Source: a virus (taxonomy: Duplodnaviria; Caudoviricetes). Taken from it: a DNA stretch of 54,496 nucleotides. Shown here piece after piece: positions 1-54,496 of this stretch (position 1 is the first letter of the stretch; every line of letters begins with the position of its first letter). The stretch spans positions 1-54,496 of IMG/VR virus record IMGVR_UViG_3300020201_000027. One strand, given 5' to 3'. Made by a program: the position numbers and the translations under genes. The notes below the pieces were generated by a model. It was not told the DNA's origin, did not search any database, and worked only from the letters and a program-made list of their open reading frames with translations.

Positions 1-127
1 TGGAGCGGCCGCAACTTCCGCTGCTTCGGCCGCTGCCGGCGGCAACCCTGCAGAGGGCACTTCTGCGGTGGTTTCCAAGGGCAAGAGCAAGGGCAAGGCC
101 AAGCCGCCCGCTGGCTCACCAGAAGCC
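1..127. repeat. Terminal overlap with 54370-54496 (circular assembly overlap)
   Basis: 127 nt identical to the last 127 nt except position 3 (G vs C); falls inside a coding frame that continues across the join. Confidence 0.95.
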
Positions 128-163
128 ACAGGCGTCCCAGCGGAGGAAGACACCGCCTTCTGA
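2..163 (+). CDS. C-terminal part of the Ala/Lys-rich protein starting at 53885 (wraps around the join)
   Basis: Frame continues ...GSPEA-TGVPAEEDTAF then TGA at 161-163, followed by a terminator. Confidence 0.8.
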   Translation, partial: GAAATSAASAAAGGNPAEGTSAVVSKGKSKGKAKPPAGSPEATGVPAEEDTAF

Positions 164-178
164 TCACGACAAGTTCAG

Positions 179-212
179 CCGCCGCGCTCCGTTGGGGCGC
201 GGCGGTTTTTTT
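179..212 (+). terminator. Rho-independent terminator
   Basis: CCGCCGCGCTCC-GTT-GGGGCGCGGCGG stem-loop followed by T7, 15 nt after the stop codon. Confidence 0.85.
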
Positions 213-309
213 GCGCCTATTAGGCACGCTCTAGGAGCTTGGATACCAGCCTCCTCCGCCCGGCTAACCCAGGGATAGCCGGGGACTTTCAGCCTTGGCT
301 ACCAAGCTC

Positions 310-6452: not shown

Positions 6453-6860
6453 ATGGCCAAAAATAACTATCAAGAAACTGCTAGGCAGTATCAGATGGAT
6501 GGCAATGTTGCCGTGCGCATATCTACTGGCGAGAGATTGAGCGTTGACGAGAGCCGGGGCATCCGACGCATGGCTGATTGGAGGTCTCGCGCCTCGGATG
6601 GCCTTCCTCACGAATATAGTGATACGGATTGCGTGATCCTCAAAAAGCCATACAAGTTGAAATGCACCTCTGGATGTCAGGAGGCGATCCAGCCCGATAC
6701 TGAGCACGTCCAGTCATTCGAGTATAATAAAAGCGACGATGTTTTGGTAGGTCAGGGAAGGATCACTAGGCATGAGATCGTCTGTGAGGCCTGCTGGAAT
6801 ATAGTTACAGGCAAGCGTATTTCGCAGCAGAGGTTTAGGGAGGAAGGTCCGGGCTGGTAG
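6453..6860 (+). CDS. Hypothetical protein (Cys pairs)
   Basis: 135-aa ORF with CTSGC and CEAC; no clear RBS. Confidence 0.5.
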   Translation: MAKNNYQETARQYQMDGNVAVRISTGERLSVDESRGIRRMADWRSRASDGLPHEYSDTDCVILKKPYKLKCTSGCQEAIQPDTEHVQSFEYNKSDDVLVGQGRITRHEIVCEACWNIVTGKRISQQRFREEGPGW

Positions 6861-6984
6861 GTCGAATGGTAGGGCGCCTAGGAGCGTGGTAGGGCTTGAT
6901 CAGGGGAGGGGGGAGCTAGGGCTACCGCGGAAAGTGGTAAAGGCTGGTTAGCAAGGCGTAGGGGGGTGTAGCGGGCTTTGAAAG

Positions 6985-7372
6985 TGACTACGCGCGCGCG
7001 CTGGCGCTCCCCCGCGCGTAAGATGACCCTACGCCGGAATTTTTAGCATGAAACATTTTTTGTTCGATGCTATTCGTTTTAACTGGCGTAGACGTAGACT
7101 GAAAAAAGAGACTAGGATTAATGTTTTATTATCAGGTAGTTATATACTGTTATGAGCAGTATTGAGGTCTACTCCATATAATGGATGGCGTAGACCTTTG
7201 CTGAGTATATTATTTAGACTGGGGGTAGTTTGCGGCTATATGTAGGTATTAGTGAAATATGTTGCGGGAAATTCGATGATGGTGCCACCGTGTTCTATGC
7301 TACAGATATTTCGAGCCGTAGGGTCATCTTAGGCGCGCGATATGCGCGAGCGCGCCTACGCGCGCGTAGTCA
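6985..7372. repeat. Inverted-repeat-bounded element, copy 1 (origin candidate)
   Basis: Outer IR TGACTACGCGCGCG (6985/7372), inner IR TAAGATGACCCTACG (7019-7033/7317-7331), AT-rich core; homologous to 36815-37058. Confidence 0.75.
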
Positions 7373-7686
7373 AGTGATGAAGCTTGTATTCATGGCGTTT
7401 GTTAGTGTATGCTGTTGGTGGTGCGTTGAATGTTGTGTGGCGTGTTGCCCGGCTATTAGTGTCATTGGGTGTTTTTTGTGGTAATTGGCTGGTTGGTGTG
7501 TGGTTGTTCACAACAACTTGACGCTGAAAAACACACACATGAAACTCGTATGCACACATACAAAAATAAGCAATAATATCAGGCACTTATCACAAATAAA
7601 GCTCCGGCAAATTAACACAGCGTTCAGAGTTTCAGTTGCCCCGCAATCTATTCTGGCGACCTCTGGCTGAGTTTCAACAGCCAATC

Positions 7687-7932
7687 ATGTGAAACTCAAA
7701 CTCAACTAGCTGCATGACGACCTAGAAAAGAGTCATGTGAAGCTCAAACTCAATCCCACTCAACACCTAGACCAAACCGACCCTGTGCATGACGACCCTG
7801 TGCATGACGACCCTGAGTTTGAGTTTCACACATGTTTCACCCAGACCAGACCAGACCAGACCAGACCAGACCAATGCATGACGACCCTGAGTTTGGAACT
7901 CACATTCACAACCTGAGTTTGAGTTTCACACA
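7687..7932. repeat. Mixed repeat array
   Basis: TGCATGACGACC x4, TGAGTTTGAGTTTCACA-like motif in both orientations, (CCAGA)6 at 7841-7870. Confidence 0.85.
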
Positions 7933-7942
7933 CGCCCCCCAC

Positions 7943-7974
7943 AAAAAATAGCCGAGGCTCATTGCCCCGGCTAT
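7943..7974 (-). terminator. Rho-independent terminator of the leftward operon
   Basis: Minus strand ATAGCCGGGGC-AATGA-GCCTCGGCTAT followed by a T run, just after the stop at 7980. Confidence 0.8.
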
Positions 7975-7979
7975 CCCCT

Positions 7980-8174
7980 TCACTTCCCCAAATTGGTCAC
8001 CGCCTCATTGAGGAATGATCCGCAGCCGACAAATTCCCCAGGCGGGTCTTTCATAGCCACCTTCACCTTCACAGCAGCATCAGACATCACATTGTTTATT
8101 TCAATCTCTACGCTACCGCCTCCATTGTTTTGGACCCACCATACCAGCTCACGCACGCTACGGAAAGACCGCAT
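7980..8174 (-). CDS. Hypothetical protein
   Basis: 64 aa; TGATG coupling to the upstream peptide; terminator follows. Confidence 0.65.
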   Translation of the reverse strand: MRSFRSVRELVWWVQNNGGGSVEIEINNVMSDAAVKVKVAMKDPPGEFVGCGSFLNEAVTNLGK

Positions 8175-8275
8175 CAGAAGTTTCGCTCAATGAAGCGATA
8201 CAGCGGGCCAACCACCATCAGCCTCAGGCCAATCCCAAGGCCCAGGATCCAGAACAAGATCACGCTCTCAACCAT
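8174..8275 (-). CDS. 33-aa single-pass membrane peptide (not in ORF track)
   Basis: AGGAG RBS; MVESVILFWILGLGIGLRLMVVGPLYRFIERNF. Confidence 0.6.
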   Translation of the reverse strand: MVESVILFWILGLGIGLRLMVVGPLYRFIERNF

Positions 8276-8343: not shown

Positions 8344-8847
8344 CTAGACGCGCGCCACCAGCTTACCTTTCCGGGGAGCGGCCACCAGCTTCCGCCCGAT
8401 GATGGCGATGGCGGTGGACTCCGCCTTGGCCTCGGCGGGGATGACAACGTCTCCCGCCTTGAGACCCTTGGGGAACCCGATCGCATTGGGAACCTCATTA
8501 GCCGAGACGAAAGCCCCATCCGCCCGGCGTTTGAGCTCGAAGTAAACGGCCGGCTTCGAGTTGCGGTGGAGGTAGAGCCCGGCCCGGACAGAAGCCGGAT
8601 CGTATCCGATACCCAACTCGGCATCGACCACCTTCGCCGCGAGGTCGATCCAGTCCGAGAGCGGGACCGGCGCCTTGGAGACCGCGAGAGCCTTGAGGGA
8701 GTTGGAGCGGAGGCTTTCCTTCCTCGCGTTATAGAACTCCCCAGTCCAGTAGATATAACGCCCGCTTTCCTCATAGCGCGCCTTAGCCGCTTTAAGGGCG
8801 TCAGGAGACACCGTTTCCGGGCGGCGGAAACCTTTAAATCCACGCAT
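8344..8847 (-). CDS. Hypothetical basic protein, fourth gene of the leftward operon
   Basis: 167 aa, GGAG RBS and ATG start; no Gln, Cys or internal Met. Confidence 0.8.
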   Translation of the reverse strand: MRGFKGFRRPETVSPDALKAAKARYEESGRYIYWTGEFYNARKESLRSNSLKALAVSKAPVPLSDWIDLAAKVVDAELGIGYDPASVRAGLYLHRNSKPAVYFELKRRADGAFVSANEVPNAIGFPKGLKAGDVVIPAEAKAESTAIAIIGRKLVAAPRKGKLVARV

Positions 8848-8884
8848 CGTTACTCTCCATTGTTTGGCCTTTCCGAAAGGAAAC

Positions 8885-8922
8885 CTTTCGGATAGTCGAG
8901 CCGAAACTCGACTATCCGAAAG
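8885..8922 (-). other. Perfect 16-bp hairpin
   Basis: CTTTCGGATAGTCGAG / CTCGACTATCCGAAAG with a TTTCGG loop on the minus strand. Confidence 0.8.
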
Positions 8923-8925
8923 AGG

Positions 8926-9231
8926 CTAGGAAAGGGGCGGAGGTAGCCTCCCCGTAGAGATATAGACGGGGAGAAGTATAGATAGGCTCCTAGGGTAGGT
9001 ATTAGAAGCCGCTTCTAGGACGTTACGGCCGTATCCGTAGAGGGTAGGAGTAACGAAGGTCGTATATCCGGTCGCTACTCCGCTCTTACCCTTATCTATT
9101 ACGAAATAACTACCCTTCTCTAACCCGCGCCCGAATACCCGGACTAGGATCGTTCCGATAGTAACTCTTTCGCCTTCGCGGAGGGGTAGACCCTCCGCTA
9201 CTAGCGCGCGCTCTATTAGGGACTTAGGAAT
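8926..9231 (-). CDS. 101-aa hypothetical protein, ATT start (not in ORF track)
   Basis: AGATAGGAGGCTACT-ATT; (M)PKSLIERALVAEGLPLREGERVTIGTILVRVFGRG...STGRLPPPLS*. Confidence 0.8.
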   Translation of the reverse strand: MPKSLIERALVAEGLPLREGERVTIGTILVRVFGRGLEKGSYFVIDKGKSGVATGYTTFVTPTLYGYGRNVLEAASNTYPRSLSILLPVYISTGRLPPPLS

Positions 9232-9256
9232 AGTAGCCTCCTATCTTTAGGAAGTA

Positions 9257-9637
9257 TTAAAGGCCGAACCGTTCCGAAAAGGCTCTATCCGCGGCGCGAG
9301 TTTCCGCCGCCGCGTAGACCTCGTAAGTAACTCCGGCTTCTTTCGCGCGGGCTTTATCTTCCGCGAGAATAAAATCGGCGACCGCTACTTCCGCTTCCGT
9401 ATAGGCGAGTAGGGCGATACTAGCCTCGCGGTATCTTTTCGCGTATTCTTTAGCCGCTTCCGTAACGCGACGAGTAGCCTTTTCCTCGATAAGGATAGCC
9501 TTACTATAGGCTTCCCTAGCTAGGGTATAGGCGAAACTCTTTACTTCCCCTATCGCCCTTTCCGTAGCGTCTCGCGCGAGAATATACTTAGCGCGCGCCT
9601 CTATTTCGTTAAGCCGTAGACGATTTAGCGTTTCGAT
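9257..9637 (-). CDS. 126-aa helical hypothetical protein, ATC start (not in ORF track)
   Basis: AGATAGGAGGCTACT-ATC; (M)ETLNRLRLNEIEARAKYILARDATERAIGEVK...RAADRAFSERFGL*. Confidence 0.82.
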   Translation of the reverse strand: METLNRLRLNEIEARAKYILARDATERAIGEVKSFAYTLAREAYSKAILIEEKATRRVTEAAKEYAKRYREASIALLAYTEAEVAVADFILAEDKARAKEAGVTYEVYAAAETRAADRAFSERFGL

Positions 9638-9652
9638 AGTAGCCTCCTATCT

Positions 9653-9862
9653 CTAAAGAGCGCGAAGGGCGGATCGGGCGGAAATTCGCGCGCGCCGGGC
9701 GGAGTAGGTAGCCTTATCCGCGCGCTCTATAGCGTCCCTCTCCCCGTTAAGAGAGGCTAAGGCGTTAAGGCGCCCCGCCTCGTAAGAGAGGGTAGTAAGA
9801 GCGTCTATAGCGTAGAGAGCTCGCTTCTTAAGCGAGGAAGGGGAAGCGGGAGATTTAGGAAT
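9653..9862 (-). CDS. 69-aa hypothetical protein, ATT start (not in ORF track)
   Basis: AGATAGGAGGCTACT-ATT; (M)PKSPASPSSLKKRALYAIDALTTLSYEAGRLNAL...ARSALRAL*; its stop abuts the next RBS cassette. Confidence 0.78.
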   Translation of the reverse strand: MPKSPASPSSLKKRALYAIDALTTLSYEAGRLNALASLNGERDAIERADKATYSARRARISARSALRAL

Positions 9863-9923
9863 AGTAGCCTCCTATCTTTAAGGTTAGAGAGGCTAAGGGC
9901 CCTTCCCTCTCTCTCTATTTAGG

Positions 9924-9952
9924 AGTCTATACCCTACCCCCCCCTAGGTCTA
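9924..9952 (-). promoter_or_regulatory. Putative sigma70-like promoter TAGACC-N17-TAGACT
   Basis: Exact 17-nt spacer, about 60 nt upstream of the first ATT start. Confidence 0.55.
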
Positions 9953-10087
9953 GTTACGACTTGTTAATATAGGGCTTGTGTTTTTCGGCTCGCTTCCGGG
10001 CTCGCGTAGAGGTAGTTGTAGCCTCCCACAAGTTGCATCGCGCACCAACATCGCGCACGCCGACAATCTCACACCAACACCCGCACA

Positions 10088-10107
10088 AAAAATTTTGCAA
10101 AATTTTT
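10088..10107. repeat. 20-bp perfect palindrome upstream of terminase genes
   Basis: AAAAATTTTGCAAAATTTTT within a CA-rich non-coding tract. Confidence 0.7.
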
Positions 10108-10189
10108 CACCAACAGCAAACACAAACACCATTTCACACAATGTCACAAAAATATAACTAGCCCCGGCAATCTCCATCATATAGGATAA

Positions 10190-10840
10190 ATGCCGTTAAC
10201 CCCAATCAACCCAAGCCAACAGAATATCATGTCTCGCAAGAAAGTGCCAAGTCCAAAAGAGCCCACCAGACAGGATGAGTATCTGGTCAAGCGTTCAATA
10301 ACGCAAGCAATGAAACATGACATGGCAGGCGGCGTGCTGCCACTAGTCGTTGATTCAAAGCAGCGTGCCATGGCGATTGCGAGAGCCCGGCCAGCACCGA
10401 CCATCAATTTGAAAGAGAACCTGCTTAGGATAGTTGAGGAAGCAGACCCTCTTGGGTTCCTGATAAGCGTTCAGCGAGGAGACCTTCAGCCAGTCAGCCA
10501 CGTGAACGGAATTGGGGAAATTGAGGTGCGGTATGTGCAACCTGACCTGGGCATACGGGTTGGAGTGGCTGAGTTCCTGGTCCATAAGATATTGCCAACG
10601 ATCAGCTTGAAGATGCAGAACCCATTTCAGGATGGAGCAGAATCAGAAAAGGAAGCGCCTGTCCGCCCCGGCCAACCCGGTGCTCCAACTTTCAGCGAAA
10701 TGGTTAGCCGGGCGGCGGTGATGGCGCGTGCACAAGCAGCTGGACATGACAAGTTGCCTGGGGCCAGATTTGAACCGGTGAAAGATGAAGGACAAACATA
10801 TGGGGGACAAATCATTGAACCGAACGATGATGACGAATGA
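10190..10840 (+). CDS. Putative terminase small subunit
   Basis: First gene of the packaging operon; size and DPLGFL...R..VAEFLVHKILP pattern; called mainly by position. Confidence 0.55.
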   Translation: MPLTPINPSQQNIMSRKKVPSPKEPTRQDEYLVKRSITQAMKHDMAGGVLPLVVDSKQRAMAIARARPAPTINLKENLLRIVEEADPLGFLISVQRGDLQPVSHVNGIGEIEVRYVQPDLGIRVGVAEFLVHKILPTISLKMQNPFQDGAESEKEAPVRPGQPGAPTFSEMVSRAAVMARAQAAGHDKLPGARFEPVKDEGQTYGGQIIEPNDDDE

Positions 10841-10953
10841 GTTGAAGCAGGAGGCGTATGCTGAGAAGCGTCGTCTACAGACTACTCACAATCTGGACAG
10901 GCATTTCCTCATTTACTTTGTGGAGCCTCCGCCAAAAGGGGAAAGGGCAGTCC

Positions 10954-11175
10954 GTGAATGAGTCTGGGGATCGAAGGTTCTGGGCAGCGGTCTTTGTCAC
11001 AGTTGTGATCCTGGGGCTGTATGCCATGGTGATCGCTGGGGTGGCTCCGGTGCCGGTGGATGACCTGAAGGAGACGTTGAAGATGAGCGTGGTTGCTGTC
11101 ATCAGCTATTGGATTGGTTCCAGCAGCGGCAGCGCGGCCAAAGATGCACCCCGAGCCCCGGTCATCAAAGAATGA
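10954..11175 (+). CDS. Putative holin (two TM helices)
   Basis: FWAAVFVTVVILGLYAMVIAGV and VVAVISYWIGSSSGSAAKD; probable GTG start (longer ATG start at 10858 possible). Confidence 0.6.
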   Translation: MNESGDRRFWAAVFVTVVILGLYAMVIAGVAPVPVDDLKETLKMSVVAVISYWIGSSSGSAAKDAPRAPVIKE

Positions 11176-12686
11176 GCCTGATTGATGCCATGGCATATTG
11201 GCGCAACAACCCAGTCGAGGCCGTCAAGGACTGGTTTGGGGTGACGCCTGAAGACTATCAAGGTGATGTTATCAATTCCTTGATGGGGCCAACAGGCATG
11301 GACCGCGTTACGGTGAAGAGCGCGCATGGCGTCGGCAAGACCAGCGTGGAGGCCTGGACTGGTTGGATTTATCTCATGACCCGTCCAGTTAGCCGCGTTG
11401 TGGCAACTGCACCAACTCAGAGCCAGCTAAAGGACATCCTGTGGTCTGAGTATGCTAAGTGGCACCAGAAGATGCCAGAAGAATTTCAGGGAATGTGGGA
11501 CATAAGTGAGACGCACATTCGCCACAAAGAGCTGCCCAAGACCTGGTTTGCTGTGGCGCGCACAAGCAATAAGCAGGAGAACCTGCAGGGGTTCCACGGC
11601 GACAATATCTTCGTCCAAATTGACGAGGCATCTGGCGTCCCAAACAACGTGTTTGAGGTGATCGAGGGCATTCTCACCTCTGCTGACGAGCATGGATTGG
11701 AGGCAAAGTTGCTCATGGCCGGGAACCCAACGCAGCTTGGCGGCGAGTTCTACAATAGCTTCAACCGCAACAAGCTCTTGTATTCCCGGTTCACTGTCTC
11801 GGGAGACAGAACCCTCCCAACTGACAAAAACGGCGGCAAAATATACCTATCCAGGCGCGTGACTGAGAAATATCGCAGCACGATGGGCGCCAAGTATGGC
11901 TACCAATCAGCAGTATATGACGTGCGTGTTCGCGGCCTGTTCCCCACTGTTGGCGATGGCGTTGTGGTTCCATTCGATTGGGCAGAGAGGGCGCAGTATA
12001 TTGAGCTGCCAAGGTTCGACTATGTGGCTGATGGCATCACCCTGGTCATGGACGTTGCGCGGTCTGGCGGCAATGAGACGGTCCTGGGCGCATTCCGGCG
12101 CGGGCACTGTCTCTGGCTCCAGGCCAGGCCGCAGACCATGACCAATGAGTGCGTGAACATGATCATTGAGGCCAAGACCAGCCTGGAGGCCAATCAGCTT
12201 CGAGTCATACGCATAATTGTGGATGAGCCAGGAGTTGGCGGCGGAGTCATTGATGTGGGACGCAATGCCGGCCTGGCCATAACTGCCTACAATGGCGGCT
12301 CTGGCCTTTCTGCTGAGAACGGCGATAACCCTGATGAAATTCGGATGTTTGCGACACGTCGCTCGCGGGATTGGTGGGTGGTTCGCAGGATGATGGAAAG
12401 CGGAGCTATGAAGATACCTGAGGACGAGGAGTTGGTCAATCAACTTGCCTCTCTCAAGTATGAATACAGCGACCGTGACAAAATAATGGTCGAAACCAAG
12501 AGAAAGCTGCGCGAGCGTCTTGGTGGTGATGCCACAATTGACCGGGCTGACGTCATTGTTATGGGCTGCGCTCCGTGGAAGAGCCTTATCAATGCAACCC
12601 CGGTTCTCACGCCTGAGCAGCTGGCTGACTTGGATTATGCTGCATTGCGCCCCACCTCTGAGCACAACTTGAGCGAGTTCTCCTGA
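11172..12686 (+). CDS. terL: Terminase large subunit
   Basis: Walker A-like SAHGVGKT, Walker B VQIDEA, coupling motif GNP, nuclease MDVARSG...D and DRADV. Confidence 0.92.
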   Translation: MSLIDAMAYWRNNPVEAVKDWFGVTPEDYQGDVINSLMGPTGMDRVTVKSAHGVGKTSVEAWTGWIYLMTRPVSRVVATAPTQSQLKDILWSEYAKWHQKMPEEFQGMWDISETHIRHKELPKTWFAVARTSNKQENLQGFHGDNIFVQIDEASGVPNNVFEVIEGILTSADEHGLEAKLLMAGNPTQLGGEFYNSFNRNKLLYSRFTVSGDRTLPTDKNGGKIYLSRRVTEKYRSTMGAKYGYQSAVYDVRVRGLFPTVGDGVVVPFDWAERAQYIELPRFDYVADGITLVMDVARSGGNETVLGAFRRGHCLWLQARPQTMTNECVNMIIEAKTSLEANQLRVIRIIVDEPGVGGGVIDVGRNAGLAITAYNGGSGLSAENGDNPDEIRMFATRRSRDWWVVRRMMESGAMKIPEDEELVNQLASLKYEYSDRDKIMVETKRKLRERLGGDATIDRADVIVMGCAPWKSLINATPVLTPEQLADLDYAALRPTSEHNLSEFS

Positions 12687-17961: not shown

Positions 17962-18092
17962 CAAACTCACATCCAGAGGGGGCACACTCTGGATGTGATC
18001 TACTTCTCAGCTGCAAAGTTGAGAACCTTGACGGCGTTTGACGCCTAGTGCCCTGGGCGTTAAGCGCCGTCATTGCACAAGGGCACAATACA

Positions 18093-20984
18093 ATGGAAAT
18101 CATCATTGCTTCTCCTGGGATGAAATTCGGTCCAGCAACGCTGGATCACAAATCTCTTGGCGGAAGCGAAACAGCAGCACTATCTCTCGCCAAGGCCCTC
18201 AAGACCAGGGGTCACATGGTGACGATGTTCTGTGACCTTCCTGCCCCTGGCCAACCAGATTATATTCAATCTGGCGCCATTGGCGATGATGGCGTCAGAT
18301 ATCTGAGCTTGGATGGGTATCAGCCATTCATTACGACGACTGAAGTGGATTTGCTGATCGCGTCACGGTCTGCGGAGCTTCTCCACCTCAATCACCAGGC
18401 CCGGTATGCTGTCTTGTGGACGCATGATCTGGCAACGATCAAAGGCACCATGCCGACCCTCCAGGGCTCTGGCTGGAACTTCAATGAAATCTGGTGCGTA
18501 TCTGATTGGCATCGTCGGCAGTATGCCGAGGTCACGGGATATCCCATTGACTTCATCAAGGTGCTGCAGAATGGCGTCAACGAATATTCTACGTGCACCA
18601 CCAGGCGCGATCCAAATACTCTGCTGTATGCTGCGCGCCCAGAGCGCGGCCTGGAGGCTCTGGTCCGTCCTGGCGGCATCATGGACTATCTCGGCGGAGA
18701 CTGGAAGCTGGAAGTCTGCATGTATGACAACCATCCTCCCCATATGAAGAGCTACTACAGTTGGCTGTTCTCCATGTGCGATCATAACCCGCGCGTCAAA
18801 TTCATTGGGTCGCTTCGTCAGGACCAACTTCGTGATCGGATGAATTCTGTCGGCGCATATGTCTATCCAACCGCCTTTGAAGAGACCAGCTGCATCATGG
18901 CCCAGGAGGCCATGTCCGTTGGAACGCCATTCATCACCACCCGCGAAGGCGCTCTGCCTGAGACGTTGGGAGGCTATGGCAATTTCTATGATGGGACAGC
19001 TTGTTGGAATTCTGATGAGTTCTGCAAAGAGTTTGCATCGCTGATCTCTGAAAGCATTTTTGGTGATAGCACCGCCGCGCAACAGCCTCAGCATCACCTG
19101 TGGGAAGAGATAGCCGGGCGGGTGGAGACGCTGTTTAACAATCTCTCTAGCGCCCCGCAATCGCTGTTCTCGCGCCTCTGGGGGCTGGTTGAGACCAGTG
19201 ATGTCATCCCTGCTATCTCTCTGTGGCAGCACACAAAAGACAAAGAACAGCACCCTTGGGCATCCCGCCTCATGGCGCGCGTGGAGGTGCTGTATCCCTA
19301 TCTCTTTGGTCGTGAGACATTTGCGGAATACTATGAACGCTATTTCGTGAATGAAGATTTCAAGGGCGCTCGCGTGCGCCGATCCCAAATTGGCAGCCAG
19401 CGGTTTGAACAGATCGCTGATGAGATCGCCAAACTGCCTGCCGGGTCTAGCGTCATGGACTATGGTTGCGCTGAGGGCGTGATCATTCTTGATCTTGCGG
19501 CCCGGTTCCCTGACAAGTCGTTCATGGGCGTGGACTTTGCACAGAGCAACGTTGAGCTCTGTCGTAAATATGCCATTGATCTGGGTCTAACCAATGCACT
19601 ATTCTGCGTCGGCAATACAGAGAGCTTCCTGCCCAAGCCGCAGAAAATATATGATGCGGTGATCTGCACCGAAGTGCTTGAGCACGTCCTCAAGCCGTGG
19701 ACAGTCGTCTCCATACTTGAGGACAATGTGCGTATCGGCGGCAGAGTGATCATCACTGTGCCGATGGGCAACTGGGAGGCGATTGGGCTATACAACAAGA
19801 CTCAATATTGGTGGCGAGCCCATATCTGGAGCATTGACAAGTGGATGCTCCGTGAAATGTTTGCTGACAAGGAAGGCGCTCGAATGCTGGCTATGCCGCA
19901 TGGCGCAACGCATGAAGGTCGCTCTCTTGGCCATCTTTTGTTCTGCTATGATGCAGACCGCAATCCGGCCCATCCCATCAAGGCAATGGATAAAGCAAAC
20001 CGTCTGCGATCTGTCCAGACTGCCACGGCGTGCATCATCACCAACCAATATGAGAGCTTGGCCAAGACGCTGAACAGTCTGAGCCGCAATGTCCAATGCG
20101 TCAATGTCTGCATCCAACCCTCTGAATGCTACTCAATCATCTGCACAATCCTGGAAGACTACAAGATTGCCAATCCATGGATTGATTTGGAATATTCCCT
20201 GGCCCCACACATTCGCGTCGGTCACTATGGGTTCGATGATGCCAGGAATGACAGCACCAAGGATGTGGAGACGGATTGGGTGCTGTGGATCGACAGCGAT
20301 GAATATCTCTCTGGTGATCTTCCGCGATATCTCAGGCCGAATGCATTTGATGCATACTCCATCCATCAGCACCATTTCACGGTTGATCCCCGTGGAGCGC
20401 CAGCGATGCTTGATAAGCCTGCGCGTCTATTCCGCACCGACCGCGGATTCAAATTCTATGGCAAGGTCCACGAGCACGCTGAAAAGGGCATAAATGGCGG
20501 GCCAGGGTTCTGCATGATCCTGGCAGATGTGGATATTGGCCACACTGGCTATGTGAATGAGTCTGTGCGTCGCGCTCGATTTGACCGCAACTTCCCGCTC
20601 CTGGAATGGGATCACCGTGTCAACCCTGAGCGTCGCCTGGGCAAGTTTCTTTGGCTACGGGACATTCTGCACCGTATGCGGTATTCCATTGACAAGCGTT
20701 CTCCAGTCGATGCCAAGCTTCTTGCTGAAGAGGCAGTGGCATACTACAAGGAGCACTGGCAGGGCGACATGATTCCTGGTATGGGAGGCGAGAACGCATA
20801 CCATTATTACAGCGAGGCAATCCAACATCTCGGGCGCGGACAGAGCGTCACGCTTTCATTCAAGATTGATGATGATGTGATTGATGTGAGCGGCGCATTT
20901 GAGAGTGCTGATGACTTGGCTGATGCCGTCCGATCTGCCGCCAAAGGACGCTTTGTGAAACTGGCCAGCAAATATCTCAGGTGA
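18093..20984 (+). CDS. Glycosyltransferase (GT-B) / SAM methyltransferase / glycosyltransferase (GT-A) fusion
   Basis: LGGSET and YPTAFEETSCIMAQEA (GT4-like); DYGCAEG and YDAVICTEVLEHV (class I MTase); FDDARN, WVLWIDSDE, RLFR...GKVHE, HTGY (GT2-like). Confidence 0.88.
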   Translation: MEIIIASPGMKFGPATLDHKSLGGSETAALSLAKALKTRGHMVTMFCDLPAPGQPDYIQSGAIGDDGVRYLSLDGYQPFITTTEVDLLIASRSAELLHLNHQARYAVLWTHDLATIKGTMPTLQGSGWNFNEIWCVSDWHRRQYAEVTGYPIDFIKVLQNGVNEYSTCTTRRDPNTLLYAARPERGLEALVRPGGIMDYLGGDWKLEVCMYDNHPPHMKSYYSWLFSMCDHNPRVKFIGSLRQDQLRDRMNSVGAYVYPTAFEETSCIMAQEAMSVGTPFITTREGALPETLGGYGNFYDGTACWNSDEFCKEFASLISESIFGDSTAAQQPQHHLWEEIAGRVETLFNNLSSAPQSLFSRLWGLVETSDVIPAISLWQHTKDKEQHPWASRLMARVEVLYPYLFGRETFAEYYERYFVNEDFKGARVRRSQIGSQRFEQIADEIAKLPAGSSVMDYGCAEGVIILDLAARFPDKSFMGVDFAQSNVELCRKYAIDLGLTNALFCVGNTESFLPKPQKIYDAVICTEVLEHVLKPWTVVSILEDNVRIGGRVIITVPMGNWEAIGLYNKTQYWWRAHIWSIDKWMLREMFADKEGARMLAMPHGATHEGRSLGHLLFCYDADRNPAHPIKAMDKANRLRSVQTATACIITNQYESLAKTLNSLSRNVQCVNVCIQPSECYSIICTILEDYKIANPWIDLEYSLAPHIRVGHYGFDDARNDSTKDVETDWVLWIDSDEYLSGDLPRYLRPNAFDAYSIHQHHFTVDPRGAPAMLDKPARLFRTDRGFKFYGKVHEHAEKGINGGPGFCMILADVDIGHTGYVNESVRRARFDRNFPLLEWDHRVNPERRLGKFLWLRDILHRMRYSIDKRSPVDAKLLAEEAVAYYKEHWQGDMIPGMGGENAYHYYSEAIQHLGRGQSVTLSFKIDDDVIDVSGAFESADDLADAVRSAAKGRFVKLASKYLR

Positions 20985-37136: not shown

Positions 37137-38915
37137 ATGAAAGTGACTACATGGGGAAGTGACATGGCAATACAGGGGTTGCCGGAAAACCACTTTTACC
37201 ACGAAATAATCCGTAAGCTCGGCAAGCGTCGTTGGTTTCCATCCCAAAAGGTATGGGTTATGCCTGCTTGGCTATCCATAATGGAGGATGTGAAACGCTG
37301 GCTTCCTTCCTTGGTGTGGGACGACGACATCAACCAAATATACTACAAGGCAGCATCAGAAGAGCAACGCCGCCAAGAAATGGCAGTCGGCAACCATTCT
37401 GTTCCTGATGATGCCTTTGACGGAGTAAATTTCAAGACAGTCCCATACCAACATCAAAAGGTGGCTCTATATCTCGCGCGCGATCTACCTGAATTTGCAT
37501 ATCTCATGGATCAGGGGACTGGCAAGACCAAGACGATCATCGACGATGTTGCCCACAATTACCGGAATGGGCGCATCAATGCATTTCTGATCATCTCGCC
37601 AAATTCAGTTAAGACCAACTGGGTGGATTGTGATGAGAGCGAGAAGAACCCAGATCAAATCACAGTCCATATGCCAGATGATGTTCCGCTCATCAAGGCT
37701 TCATTTTTCTCAAATCCAAGCCAATCACAGCAAAAAGCCATTGACAGGTTGCTCAAGGCAATCAACCTTGAAAGCAAGACGCTGTTGATCCTCTCCATCA
37801 ATGTTGAGAGTTTATATTTGGAGCGTATGCAGAAGATGCTTCAAAATTTCTGTAATCGACGTGACGTTTTTTGTGCAATTGATGAGAGCACGCGCATCGG
37901 CAGACATTCTGCCAAGCGCAGCAAGGTCGCTCACAACCTGCGCAAAGTAACCAAAATCAGGCGCATTGCATCGGGAACCCCGGTTATCAAGTCCCCACTC
38001 AAGGCATACAGCCAGTTCTATTTCCTCAATCCAGACATTATGGGCAAGGCCACCTTCACAGAATTCCAGGCGAGATATGCCATTGTCAGAGGGCTATACA
38101 ACACGCCTGTGAGCTTTACAAATCTGGATGAGCTGAAGCAGAAGATAGCCGGGTGTAGCTACAGAGTGACCAAAGATCAATGTCTTGATCTACCGCCAAA
38201 AGTATATCAGAAGCGGCTCATACCGTTGACTCCTGAGCAGAACCGCCTATATCAGCAAATGCGCAAAGATGCAATTGTTGCAATTCAAAAGACAGAGCGC
38301 GTCGTTGATGGCCACGTCTTTATTGAGGCAACAAATGTCATGGTCCAGATGCTTAGGCTACAGCAAATTGTTGCTGGTTATCTTCCACAGATTGATGAAT
38401 TGACCGGAAAGCAATCCGGCGTAATCAAAATTGGGAACTCCACACCTCCAAAAATTGAGGAAACCATAAATTTGATGGAGACGTGCGAGGATGAAAAAGT
38501 CATCATCTGGTGCAAATTCAAATTTGAAGTCCGTGAGATGTGCCAGGCTCTGAAAGATGCTGGCATTACATACGTCAAGTTTGATGGGGATACCACAGAA
38601 CAGGAGCGAATACACGCCCGGCAATCCTTCCAATCTGATCCTGAGCTTAGATGCTTTGTTGGTCAAATTCAAACTGGTGGGATCGGTCTCAATCTGTATG
38701 CAGCCAGCCAAGTTGTATATCTGTCCAACCCATTCTCAACAGAGGATAGGGTCCAATCAGAGGACAGGGCCCATCGCATTGGGCAAACTCGGTCTGTGAC
38801 ATACACAGACTTGATATCGCCAAAAACTATTGATGAGCGCGTTCTGGATGTGCTTCGAGCAAACAAGCGCGTATCTGAAATGGTGCTCGGTGATACATAC
38901 CAGGAATGGATTTGA
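37137..38915 (+). CDS. SNF2-family (SF2) helicase
   Basis: MDQGTGKT, IDES, SGTP, GGIGLNL, QSEDRAHRIGQ. Confidence 0.92.
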   Translation: MKVTTWGSDMAIQGLPENHFYHEIIRKLGKRRWFPSQKVWVMPAWLSIMEDVKRWLPSLVWDDDINQIYYKAASEEQRRQEMAVGNHSVPDDAFDGVNFKTVPYQHQKVALYLARDLPEFAYLMDQGTGKTKTIIDDVAHNYRNGRINAFLIISPNSVKTNWVDCDESEKNPDQITVHMPDDVPLIKASFFSNPSQSQQKAIDRLLKAINLESKTLLILSINVESLYLERMQKMLQNFCNRRDVFCAIDESTRIGRHSAKRSKVAHNLRKVTKIRRIASGTPVIKSPLKAYSQFYFLNPDIMGKATFTEFQARYAIVRGLYNTPVSFTNLDELKQKIAGCSYRVTKDQCLDLPPKVYQKRLIPLTPEQNRLYQQMRKDAIVAIQKTERVVDGHVFIEATNVMVQMLRLQQIVAGYLPQIDELTGKQSGVIKIGNSTPPKIEETINLMETCEDEKVIIWCKFKFEVREMCQALKDAGITYVKFDGDTTEQERIHARQSFQSDPELRCFVGQIQTGGIGLNLYAASQVVYLSNPFSTEDRVQSEDRAHRIGQTRSVTYTDLISPKTIDERVLDVLRANKRVSEMVLGDTYQEWI

Positions 38916-38985
38916 AACTTCATCTTTTCTCAATAGCGTCCCAATTATAGTCGGGCTAGTCTACTTGAGAGGAAAAGGGCACCCA

Positions 38986-39411
38986 ATGAGTGAAACTGCT
39001 AAAGATACCGTTGTCGGCAAAGCGAAAAGAATGCGCTGGCTGATGGATGAAAAGGACCGCCTGGAGGCAAGTCTGAAGACGGTAAATGGAGAATTAGAAC
39101 CTCTCCGCAAGTTTGAGCTCCCCAAGTTAATGAGTGACGCCGAGATCGAGAAGATCACGGTGGCCGGGGCTGGGACGCTCTACACCAAGCCTGATGTCTT
39201 TGCGTCGATGATCAAAGATGAAAGTGACCCTTCGGCAGAGGCACCATTCTATGATTGGGCCAGGAATAATGCCCCTGATCTCATCACACCATACATCCAC
39301 CCAGCAAGGCTCAAGTCTTGGGCCAAGGAGAAACTTGAAAGCGGCAATCCCTTGCCAAATTCACTCCATGCGACCATCGTGATCAATGCAACACTTCTGA
39401 GGAAAGGTTAA
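38986..39411 (+). CDS. Conserved phage replication-module protein
   Basis: Coiled-coil N-terminus, LPKLM...IHPARLKSWAKE pattern. Confidence 0.65.
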   Translation: MSETAKDTVVGKAKRMRWLMDEKDRLEASLKTVNGELEPLRKFELPKLMSDAEIEKITVAGAGTLYTKPDVFASMIKDESDPSAEAPFYDWARNNAPDLITPYIHPARLKSWAKEKLESGNPLPNSLHATIVINATLLRKG

Positions 39412-39418
39412 CGCTACC

Positions 39419-40303
39419 ATGGCCAAAAACGCACAAGTTGCCGCTGCTGATACTGGGACGGCTGTTGCTGTCCAGATTGGCGGGGGCGCAGTGGCTCTGC
39501 CTGATTATCTCTCTGGATATTCTGGCCCAACCGGCACAGAAAACATCGACAGCGGTGACGTCAATATCCCTCGACTCAAGCTTGCCCAGGGGTTGACGCC
39601 TGAGGTCAAGGACGGCCTGGTGAAAGACGGAGACATGTTCCACTCCATCACCAAGCAGGTTCTGATTGAGAAGGGGAAGGCTGGCATCGTCATCCCAATT
39701 GCCTACGTGAAGGAATACATCCTGTGGCGTGACATGGCAGACGGCGGCGGCATCTTTGCTCGTGCCCGTCGTGTCATGGAGAAAGGCGAGGTCCGATATA
39801 AATGGGACCACCCAAATGAGACCTTCGAGCACAAGGTGAAGGGCGTCGTCAAGGTCAAATGGAGCACCAAAGGCTACATTGACGAAGATGGCCTGGACAA
39901 GTTCGGATCATCTGTTGCTTCAGAGCCAGACAGCGTGCCTGCTGCCAATGAGCATCTCAATTACATCTTCCTGATGCCCGATGCTGACGAGCAACTGGTG
40001 GCAGTGTCATTTTCTCGCACTGCAGCCTCCAAGGCCAAGGACTTGAACGCAATGCTCAAGATGGGTGTTGCGCCAATGTTCGCGCGCCAGTTCACCCTGG
40101 CAGCAATGCCACAGACCAATGACGCTGGTCAGGAGTTCTACAACTACATCATCCGTCCTGCTGGATTTGTCCCTGGTGCGGGCATGTTCAAGCGGGCACA
40201 GGCCCTCCATCTGGAGATGCGCGATAAAGTCCAGGTGGACTTCTCGGATGAGACCAAGGCCAGCTCTGGCGATGGCAACAAAGAAGAAAAAGGACAATGG
40301 TAA
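39419..40303 (+). CDS. Putative single-stranded DNA-binding protein
   Basis: G.EN....D..IPRLKLAQ..TPE, EYILW.D...GGG, charged flexible tail; position. Confidence 0.6.
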   Translation: MAKNAQVAAADTGTAVAVQIGGGAVALPDYLSGYSGPTGTENIDSGDVNIPRLKLAQGLTPEVKDGLVKDGDMFHSITKQVLIEKGKAGIVIPIAYVKEYILWRDMADGGGIFARARRVMEKGEVRYKWDHPNETFEHKVKGVVKVKWSTKGYIDEDGLDKFGSSVASEPDSVPAANEHLNYIFLMPDADEQLVAVSFSRTAASKAKDLNAMLKMGVAPMFARQFTLAAMPQTNDAGQEFYNYIIRPAGFVPGAGMFKRAQALHLEMRDKVQVDFSDETKASSGDGNKEEKGQW

Positions 40304-53884: not shown

Positions 53885-54496
53885 ATGCGATATCGTATGG
53901 CGAATGATGAGTCGATCGAGGCAAAGCCGACAAAGTTCGATGACTGCACCCTGGCTGCCACGGGCAAGCCCTACAAGTTCCAGAAAGGCAGCGGCCGCAG
54001 CATGGTTATTGCGCTGGCGGTGGATGGCATGCCCCTGGGCACCCTGGCCGCCATGGCTGGCAAGCTCGGCTTCACCTCCGATTTTGCAGTGGACTGCGCC
54101 TGGAAGCAGCACACCACCGCCGACGGCGCCTGGAAGGTGGAGCCCCCCAGTGGGATGACCATGGCCGAGGTGAAGGCGCGCAAGAACGTCTACATCCTGA
54201 CGCCGGAGCAGGAGCAGGCTGCAAAGGATCGTGAGGATGACAAGGCCAAGGCCAAGTCAGCTCGTGAGCTGGCAAAGACGCAGAAGGCCGAGGCTGCCGC
54301 TGCCAGTCGGGCAGCCAAGGCCGACGCAGCCATTGCTACCCGGCTGAAAGCACGGCAAGACGCAGCGGATGCAGCGGCCGCAACTTCCGCTGCTTCGGCC
54401 GCTGCCGGCGGCAACCCTGCAGAGGGCACTTCTGCGGTGGTTTCCAAGGGCAAGAGCAAGGGCAAGGCCAAGCCGCCCGCTGGCTCACCAGAAGCC
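53885..54496 (+). CDS. Ala/Lys-rich protein (215 aa when joined to 128-163)
   Basis: Open frame from ATG 53885 to the window end, continuing to TGA 161-163; AAGGGCA upstream. Confidence 0.8.
   Translation, partial: MRYRMANDESIEAKPTKFDDCTLAATGKPYKFQKGSGRSMVIALAVDGMPLGTLAAMAGKLGFTSDFAVDCAWKQHTTADGAWKVEPPSGMTMAEVKARKNVYILTPEQEQAAKDREDDKAKAKSARELAKTQKAEAAAASRAAKADAAIATRLKARQDAADAAAATSAASAAAGGNPAEGTSAVVSKGKSKGKAKPPAGSPEA
54370..54496. repeat. Terminal overlap with 1-127
   Basis: Matches the first 127 nt with one mismatch. Confidence 0.95.

Follow-up and report, generated by a model that had tools for sequence, protein, structure and literature searches.

Why would a phage keep more than a kilobase of its genome free of two dinucleotides that abound elsewhere in it? 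The question is raised by IMG/VR virus record IMGVR_UViG_3300020201_000027 (Duplodnaviria; Caudoviricetes), analysed here over its whole length of 54,496 bp, which we call the window. A first-pass annotation of its letters and open reading frames (ORFs) had pointed to a 1.1-kb block without CA or TG next to the putative terS, and had proposed a first-entry operon kept free of a motif in double-stranded DNA. We find that the exclusion is complete within the block, recurs in relatives and extends into the flanks in a strand-specific form. The answer that we tentatively favour is that an early messenger RNA (mRNA) has been cleared of the targets of an agent acting on RNA.

CA and TG are excluded from a 1.1-kb block

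8867..9961, no strand: CA/TG-free block, 1,095 bp

The block is flanked by TGs at 8865-8866 and 9962-9963, and the gap of 1,097 between them holds zero CA and zero TG. This verifies the starting claim that neither occurs at 8867-9961, where about 137 would be expected under uniform composition. At the CA+TG frequency found outside the block (0.163), about 178 are expected within it, with log10 P(0) of about -84. Elsewhere in the window CA/TG is the most frequent duplex step (8,684 occurrences), the runner-up CA/TG-free gap is 50 bp, and the longest such gap in 100 first-order Markov simulations of the window averaged 43.8, with a maximum of 61. Gaps of every other duplex step reach 414 bp at most (the longest belonging to TA), and when all dinucleotides were scanned in the window and 25 further loci the improbable runs came from CA and TG only. 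The depletion forms a gradient, from zero CA/TG in the block through 7-11 per 200 bp in the next gene (against a mean of 31.7, standard deviation 6.6) to normal values; the sense strand of the late genes carries ~25 CA and ~25 TG per 300 nucleotides (nt).

The trinucleotides missing from the block are precisely the 16 that contain CA or TG, and each of the remaining 48 occurs at least 8 times, so the ban concerns the two dinucleotides as such, not some longer word. Read as RNA, the block holds 0 ACA and 0 UGN. The dinucleotide observed/expected ratios, which had been proposed as a check, are 1.95 for TA and 1.40 for CG in the block, compared with 0.55 and 0.79 elsewhere, and GA occurs 79 times against 76 expected. 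The short palindromes CTAG, CGCG, GCGC, TTAA and TATA are enriched, which rules out a general avoidance of restriction sites. Proofing of the frames against stops created by deamination was likewise rejected, because CGA codons are in use, and avoidance of spurious promoters or upstream starts would be too weak a force for an absolute ban.

The block occurs in nature. The stretch is present in 7 public runs of 7 studies, all labelled microbial mat metagenome, with no RNA run among the seven, and independently built Logan contigs cover the block in all four runs examined, giving it the read support that had been asked for; in one run, X2, a single contig spans 8000-10600. All nine single-letter variants in the block, among those listed, create no CA or TG (P = 0.026, since 1,093 of the 3,285 possible substitutions would do so); 43 further differences lie beyond these nine. 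One X2 contig has 8847-9636 replaced by 260 other letters, and therefore represents a co-occurring strain with a different block cargo, as in the related locus L008 described below.

Three genes without NTG starts

9653..9862, minus strand: ORF1, 69 amino acids (aa), ATT start, TAG stop; homologue in the L008 block
9257..9637, minus strand: ORF2, 126 aa, ATC start, TAA stop
8926..9231, minus strand: ORF3, 101 aa, ATT start, TAG stop
9860..9877, minus strand: ORF1 initiation cassette, GATAGGAGGCTACTATT, made of AGGAGG, a 5-nt spacer and ATT

Counts bear out that the block contains no ATG, GTG or TTG, no TGA and no Met, Trp, Cys, His or Gln codon, in other words that the exclusion overrides coding needs. 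What the block does contain is three ORFs, each preceded by the same Shine-Dalgarno (SD) cassette, found again at 9635-9652, where it ends in ATC, and at 9229-9246. The form shared by all three is GATAGGAGGCTACTAT(T/C), a perfect AGGAGG followed by five bases and the start codon, and its core, AGGAGGCTACTATT, precedes the block ORFs of the relatives L008 (twice) and L009 (once). The proteins of ORF1-3 are built from 15 amino acids only.

Comparison with the L008 homologue of ORF1 gave 30 identical, 16 synonymous and 17 non-synonymous codons, with a 21-residue stretch unchanged (71% identity by tblastn). A second block gene, a 57-aa ORF (ORFx) found in L008 and L009, differs between these two by 8 synonymous and 7 non-synonymous codons. 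The identical SD cassettes, together with this synonymous/non-synonymous pattern and its conserved core, indicate that the block ORFs are real genes kept under a nucleotide-level ban.

The products gave few leads. The AlphaFold2 (AF2) model of ORF2 is confident (pLDDT 93.9), but with one long and one short helix (residues 2-100 and 105-124) it is uninformative. A HMMER search with ORF2 against 1.84 billion representatives returned only two giant repeat proteins (20 and 7 matched stretches), taken as low-complexity likeness. ORF3 had no Atlas match and no homologue, and ORF2, ORF3 and the terminase large subunit gene (terL), used as single queries against viral contigs, found nothing. The 17-nt SD cassette as a query hit four stretches, all ascribed to chance (longest CA/TG-free run 41 bp).

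The exclusion recurs in relatives and bears the mark of selection

8344..8847, minus strand: first ATG gene of the operon, 167 aa, partly CA/TG-depleted, conserved family marker

The gene that follows the block still carries 35 CA/TG in its 504 nt. Its protein has 44 homologues at 42-93% identity in a large protein collection, some of them on ~54 kb contigs. Alignment of 30 of the 44 gave one viral and eight metagenomic loci, and alignment of terL gave 14 more viral ones; individual loci are given here as L plus a number. In 7 of 11 sequences a CA/TG-free run of 190 bp or more either immediately precedes the homologue or includes it; these are the window, L008, L009, L011, L012, L013 and L025 (L011 and L012 are one sequence where they overlap). 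Upstream of the homologue the runs measure 598 bp in L008, 507 bp in L009, 300 bp in L012 and 582 bp in L013; that of L011 (191 bp) is cut by the contig end, and that of L025, at least 1,182 bp long, runs off the contig start and includes the homologue itself. L007 and L015 have no block, nor do L010, with only 197 nt of upstream DNA in its locus, and L014, whose upstream DNA falls outside the locus. The relatives with blocks of their own, which stand in the same operon position, reach down to 32% protein identity.

The exclusion persists while the genes under it change. L008 and L009 are syntenic with the window, terL homology included, and their cargo differs: L008 carries the ORF1 homologue and the unrelated 57-aa ORF, and L009 the 57-aa ORF only.

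How such a sequence arises can be followed in the marker gene itself. The L009 orthologue is 90% identical to the window protein and retains 5 CA/TG, compared with 35 in the window and 38 in L008. The removals are synonymous changes of every kind, transversions included (GTG to GTT, GTA or GTC; CTG to CTC; at codon junctions, C to G before A and T to C before G), plus one replacement, W66F. What is left in L009 is the ATG start and the codons of the family-invariant Trp and His with their neighbours. The L025 homologue (169 aa, 32% identity) goes further: it is fully CA/TG-free, starts with ATT, has zero Met, Trp, Cys, His and Gln, and carries Phe and Ala in place of the invariant Trp and His. 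As a query it matched itself only. The involvement of all substitution types, the conservation of the proteins, the replacement of invariant residues in L025 and the nine of nine variants that avoid CA and TG argue that the loss is the work of selection and not of mutation bias.

A mutational process, RIP-like (repeat-induced point mutation) or by a deaminase turning CA into TA, would account for the enrichment of TA and CG in the block, since changes of the deamination type at CA and TG would give just that. It would not produce transversions, nor leave proteins intact under purifying selection, nor spare CGA codons that stand one transition from a stop, and only selection would give ATT/ATC starts behind one and the same SD cassette. 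As for an assembly or synthetic artefact, the independent contigs and the diverged relatives contradict it. We give explanations of this class next to no weight.

The ban is not universal in the family. In L007 (5977-6519; a full-length relative, record G001) the homologue has normal CA/TG, and both Gln and His occur in its protein; it shares its strand with terL and is situated 4.4 kb upstream of that gene. Since its CA/TG content is normal, the exclusion is either lineage-specific or has been lost.

As to the function of the 167-aa protein, its family consensus lacks Gln, Cys and internal Met, and it matched no Pfam, PHROG or PADLOC family. Its AF2 model (pLDDT 81, pTM 0.77) found no Foldseek match at E <= 0.001 in PDB or BFVD. 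In VIA-align the top rows (Z 3-4.3) pair residues ~30-125 mostly with winged-helix DNA-binding domains, a weak lead only, and an Atlas features score of 0.82 to DUF6433 clusters was set aside as below a meaningful level.

Outside the block the depletion is strand-specific

7980..8275, minus strand: two small genes, 33 aa (hydrophobic) and 64 aa; sense strand CA-poor and TG-rich

CA and TG are the same step of a duplex, and a duplex-motif symmetry test was symmetric inside the block. In the same operon outside it, the result was strongly asymmetric. The window sense strand from 8343 down to 7951 carries 8 CA and 45 TG (p = 2e-7), the sense-strand flank in L008 12 CA and 43 TG, and the region 800-1600 of L011 3 CA and 72 TG (p = 4e-18). 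L011/L012 contain a 684-nt sense-strand run that is CA-free with abundant TG; the three L011 genes lying in it contain 2 CA and 60 TG over 192 codons, and their proteins lack His and Gln, with Trp, Cys and Met present. The homologues of the 167-aa gene show that either dinucleotide can be the more depleted one, depending on lineage: sense CA and TG number 28 and 9 in L010, 11 and 2 in L013, 9 and 29 in L011, and 25 and 27 in the undepleted L007; L008 and L014 are also more TG- than CA-depleted.

A duplex step cannot give such an asymmetry, so the agent must see single strands, be they RNA, single-stranded DNA (ssDNA) or the template during transcription. The constraint is best described as two separable bans, one on CA and one on UG. 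The first-pass view that it probably acts on duplex DNA and not on mRNA is contradicted by these counts. A constraint at the level of codons or transfer RNAs (tRNAs) was rejected as well, because codon junctions and non-coding parts obey the ban too.

A strand-aware DNA target would also satisfy this requirement. Here a lesion or modification at 5'-TG-3' on the template strand would block RNA polymerase, and the first unit to be transcribed would lack template TG (that is, sense CA) and, near the promoter, non-template TG as well. The lesion could come from a host toxin of the DarT kind acting on ssDNA, or from a modification of the phage's own virion DNA, which was one of the two models put forward at first. 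Such a target fits the block's coincidence with a transcription unit as well as RNA does, and in the window, L008 and L011/L012 the avoidance of sense CA indeed outreaches that of sense TG; the homologues in L010, L013, L008 and L014 show the opposite of what template logic predicts. The replication genes, which are also read from incoming DNA, have normal CA/TG. The gene cluster invoked for virion modification was confirmed in part: among the 50 window proteins outside the block compared with Pfam, ThyX is present, and the oxidoreductase, DUF1599 and any DNA-modification enzyme family are not. Other leads from that comparison are Nuc_deoxyri_tr2, matched weakly and below the cut-off (E = 2.7e-4), and a fusion of a GT4 glycosyltransferase to an S-adenosylmethionine (SAM)-dependent methyltransferase, which belongs to the head-tail module and hits no family of DNA methyltransferases; many small ORFs are without family. 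A TG-type motif for DarT is not reported in the literature excerpts checked. On balance we regard a DNA target of this type as unlikely, though worth keeping in view.

The block tracks a predicted transcription unit

9962..10030, minus strand: promoter-proximal stretch; its conserved -10-like box, CTATATTA (9972-9965), stands 3 nt from the block start
9863..9961, minus strand: non-coding 5' leader inside the block, 99 nt, preceding ORF1
8884..8923, minus strand: 18-pair hairpin from a terminator-like scan, after ORF3; the block ends 18 nt beyond it
10031..10189, no strand: intergenic region, very TG-rich on the sense (minus) strand, with an 18-bp palindrome
10190..12686, plus strand: late operon start, divergent; 216-aa ORF (terS by position only), 105-aa ORF, terL

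The earlier placing of the block at the start of an operon that diverges from the terminase genes is supported, with terS named by position only: the 216-aa putative TerS matched no family. Between the block operon and the divergent 216-aa ORF and terL lie 230 bp. The -10-like box is conserved in the window, L008 and L009, and the CA-free run begins 3 nt past it in the window and at the box itself in L008. The sense strand is TG-free from 10026 onwards, which is ~65 nt upstream of the CA-free run; the corresponding distance in L008 is ~50 nt. At the other end, the hairpin at 8884-8923 is conserved in the same three sequences, and of the 26 pairs predicted in a consensus fold of the hairpin with its flanking stem, 4 have changed on both sides and still pair. 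Elsewhere the block ends 14 nt past a strong stem-plus-T8 terminator (L025), at the ATG of the next gene (L013) or 2 nt before it (L009). Because it starts by a -10-like box and ends by a hairpin, a terminator or the next ATG, we infer that the block tracks a transcript, with a putative transcription start site (TSS) and terminator at its edges.

Further signals around the start came to nothing. The 10-mer upstream of the -10-like box recurs in L007, L017 and L018, which was attributed to chance (in L007 it is part of a terminator hairpin), and the frequency of the 12-mer in the window is no higher than in shuffles. A SAM riboswitch (RF00162) at 9867-9927 on the minus strand scored 21.9 bits against a gathering threshold of 44.4 (E = 0.14) and is probably a chance match.

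These boundaries bear on the second of the original models, in which the block enters the cell first, free of a short duplex motif cut by a restriction-type nuclease of the host, and its genes disarm that nuclease ahead of the entry of the remaining genome, as in T7 or T5. The block does adjoin the terminase genes, a frequent neighbourhood of pac and cos sites, and CA/TG depletion does fade with distance from it. There is also a precedent in the Autographiviridae, where, according to excerpts of one study, whether a phage escapes depends solely on its early-injected region being without a Type I motif (PMC12455610). A duplex motif, however, cannot yield the strand-specific depletion of the flanks and relatives. 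CA and TG are dense right up to the block start, in the promoter-proximal 70 bp as in the intergenic repeats, so that a duplex cutter would sever the promoter. Short palindromes are enriched instead of avoided, the contigs of the relatives break at arbitrary points, and the unit in L025 has the same direction as terL, with a reverse gene between them, whereas that of the window is divergent, which weakens any reading based on polarity of entry. A first-entry region of this kind is, in our judgement, improbable.

The intergenic region is unusual in itself. From 9976 to 10189 it is TG-saturated on the sense strand of the operon and includes an 18-bp A/T palindrome. Its counterpart in L008 (430-700) contains expanded tandem repeats, one of which holds an octamer that we take to be identical to the E. 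coli Chi site. The region could be a candidate terminase site, an operator or a recombination signal.

A proposed early message cleared of RNA targets

Of the general ideas first put forward, that of a region kept free of a target has served best. Our favoured, though still tentative, reading places the target in RNA: the block would be early mRNA cleared of targets for a candidate CA- and UG-specific agent that cleaves or modifies RNA. The block would form the promoter-proximal part of an early leftward transcription unit, from whose RNA selection has removed every CA and UG. The host would wield one or two weapons of two-base specificity acting on single strands, for example a MazF-like endoribonuclease cutting U↓G together with one directed at CA or ACA, or RNA-modifying toxins of the CmdT type. 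A message free of CA and UG would escape cutting or modification, and three small proteins would be made first, or while the weapon is active; these proteins, and the other small ones encoded in relatives, would be presumed counter-defence or take-over factors. The SD-start cassette may serve as a junction at which phages exchange CA/UG-free gene cassettes.

Several features of the locus are accounted for in this way. The message has 0 CA and 0 UG over 1,095 nt, while late transcripts carry both at the density given above. AUG, GUG and UUG all contain UG, hence the AUU and AUC starts and the uniform strong SD at optimal spacing; codons of the form CAN, UGN, NCA and NUG, and junctions with the same effect, are barred, hence proteins of 15 amino acids. 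It is possible, and we put this forward with more reserve, that soil and mat bacteria carry a new immunity hitting CA and UG, and that phages counter it with a swapped pool of target-free genes, started by AUU or AUC and encoding 15 amino acids.

A number of observations weigh against this reading. Within the block neither CA nor UG is spared, a symmetry that on its own would suit a target in duplex DNA too. The 300-nt CA/UG-free stretch of L011/L012 is leader without coding sequence, and since the first gene behind it keeps 9 CA and 29 TG, such a message would be shielded only in part. Among the 14 terL loci a run of at least 90 bp occurs in L025 alone; 10 of the 14 include at least 1.6 kb upstream of terL, and L018 and L007 are a single record. 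Leaders are in general no more structured than shuffles, and the window leader (9863-9961) folds no better than its own (z = -0.56). The TG-free run sets in ~65 nt earlier than the CA-free run, so that the 5' end of the RNA can be placed only approximately. ORF1-3 match no Pfam, PHROG or PADLOC family and show no recognisable counter-defence family or fold; known anti-restriction proteins (Ocr, ArdA and others) were likewise not matched in these scans, which small novel proteins could escape. Early timing, TSS and terminator are predictions from the DNA letters alone, action on RNA and the function of the proteins are presumed, and the agent and its host are candidates only.

The same sequence logic would hold if the weapon were the phage's own. 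In this case a nuclease directed at CA and UG, brought or made by the phage to shut off the host, would spare the unit that must work during shut-off, the only one written without targets. Persistence of the exclusion while the cargo varies between close relatives would suit this self-immunity, and ORF2 matches Mrr_cat very weakly (E = 0.073; 13.6 bits, cut-off 21). However, the block ORFs and the 50 other proteins matched no nuclease, RNase or toxin family other than a DnaQ-like exonuclease, and all later phage messages, being CA/TG-rich, would be hit too. We attach a low probability to it.

A last candidate, a region without protospacer adjacent motifs (PAMs) for a CRISPR effector with a TG PAM, was rejected: the remaining genome would be targetable, and strand asymmetry would be unexpected.

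The phage and other features of its genome

The source is a novel, uncultured tailed phage. Its genes include a Mu-type portal, a Pol III alpha-type polymerase with the DnaQ-like exonuclease beside it, ThyX, an AEP primase, SNF2 and UvrD helicases and proteins like Pam3 gp33 and gp34; no tRNA genes were found in the window. A DNA search of a phage collection gave no match for the block or the structural region. By terL, identity to cultured relatives is below 60% in all 258 records (at most 34% in the rows listed); by Pol III alpha it is 37% at most, and the 167-aa protein had no match among them. Neither a prophage copy nor a relative of the 167-aa protein was found in 185,579 species genomes.

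The record is a full IMG/VR virus entry, classed linear, with a CheckV completeness estimate of 70%. An ORF open at its 3' end (53885-54496, plus strand, 204 codons) is in phase with a frame-1 ORF open at its 5' end (1-234, plus strand). Because these end ORFs are in phase and terL has no fixed place in the ~54-kb contigs of relatives, the record is probably a cut circle or a permuted genome, despite the 70% estimate, and not a fragment with true ends.

Three further regions were noted. The fusion protein of the head-tail module (978 aa; 18048-20984, plus strand) joins a GT4/GT1 glycosyltransferase (residues ~38-334) to a class I SAM methyltransferase (~450-605), with ~370 further residues without family, and may be a virion glycosylation enzyme. 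At 38830-40303 (plus strand) a gene pair matches the Pam3 gp33-like (DUF7307) and gp34-like families, beside a TOTE-type AEP primase. The large non-coding region 6826-7950 is G-rich in one part and AT-rich in another (~7040-7300), and it carries CG palindromes together with repeats resembling iterons (3-4 copies of a 15-mer, ~6 of a 5-mer and 2 of an 18-mer). At ~7510, by a short palindrome, the TG-rich strand switches: to the left the plus strand is TG-rich and CA-poor, to the right the minus strand. The region is a candidate replication origin or genome end; L011 has a similar repeat region after its early operon.

Comparison with known systems

Were the favoured reading true, an exclusion this absolute would imply a very potent selective agent of two-base specificity, and we know of nobody who has tied a two-base agent for CA or UG to phage infection. 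The blocks would be a sequence-only marker for new counter-defence proteins and, through the hosts, for two-base-specific effectors; a scan for strand-specific dinucleotide-free runs would find counter-defence and take-over genes, including those missed for want of an NTG start. It would also follow that functional proteins can evolve and persist without Met, Trp, Cys, His and Gln, L025 having even replaced invariant residues, which would be of interest for the evolution of reduced-alphabet proteins and for the design of nuclease-proof messages.

Removal of a motif to keep a message translatable has a precedent in the laboratory, the ACA-less principle being an engineered expression trick. Excerpts of one study state that E. 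coli MazF cuts before ACA, and that in a screen of MazF homologues all characterised thermostable ones had UG in their motif, one being a U↓GN two-base cutter (PMC13107127). Such enzymes are a precedent for the RNA reading, and two-base specificity towards RNA has ceased to be unusual. Like an ACA-less message, which stays translatable when MazF acts, a message without CA and UG would escape cutters of both the U↓GN and the ACA type. A natural phage example of a motif-less, toxin-proof message did not turn up in the full-text literature searches. For the mechanism of the proposed agent, the parallel is CmdTAC, described in excerpts of its report as a defence by mRNA ADP-ribosylation that halts translation on recognising a dinucleotide in single-stranded RNA (PMC11618068). 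The two are alike in mechanism only, and CmdT itself was rejected as the agent, as it targets GA, which the block does not avoid.

Two familiar phenomena share single traits with the block. RIP in fungi removes CA/TG and adds TA, just as CpG is lost after methylation; the block likewise loses CA/TG and gains TA, but it keeps its coding, involves all substitution types, and is absolute and sharply bounded. The gene infC is initiated at AUU. In the block there are three consecutive genes with AUU or AUC starts, all with one strong SD, as a consequence of the UG ban, and no autoregulation is visible in these starts.

Closest in arrangement are early regions that lack defence targets. The leading regions of conjugative plasmids reportedly hold variable, early-expressed small genes without a defence target. 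The early-injected regions of T7-like phages, at least in excerpts of the work describing them, resemble the block in being a variable early region of small genes without a common defence target (PMC12455610). In both, the target is a long duplex motif of Type I or II and few sites are missing, whereas two dinucleotides are wholly excluded from the block, which also differs from both in being strand-aware outside its core, in its non-NTG starts and in its 15-letter alphabet. A full-text literature search found no report of a dinucleotide-free phage region, in agreement with the initial statement that no case of total dinucleotide exclusion had been described. Target-site avoidance is a classic phage trick; a total dinucleotide ban that rewrites start codons and amino-acid usage has, to our knowledge, never been seen before. 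Avoidance of a target in an early region is thus the known part of what this locus presents, and the new part is that the avoidance is absolute, acts at the level of dinucleotides, is strand-aware and has rewritten both the start codons and the amino-acid alphabet of the genes it covers.

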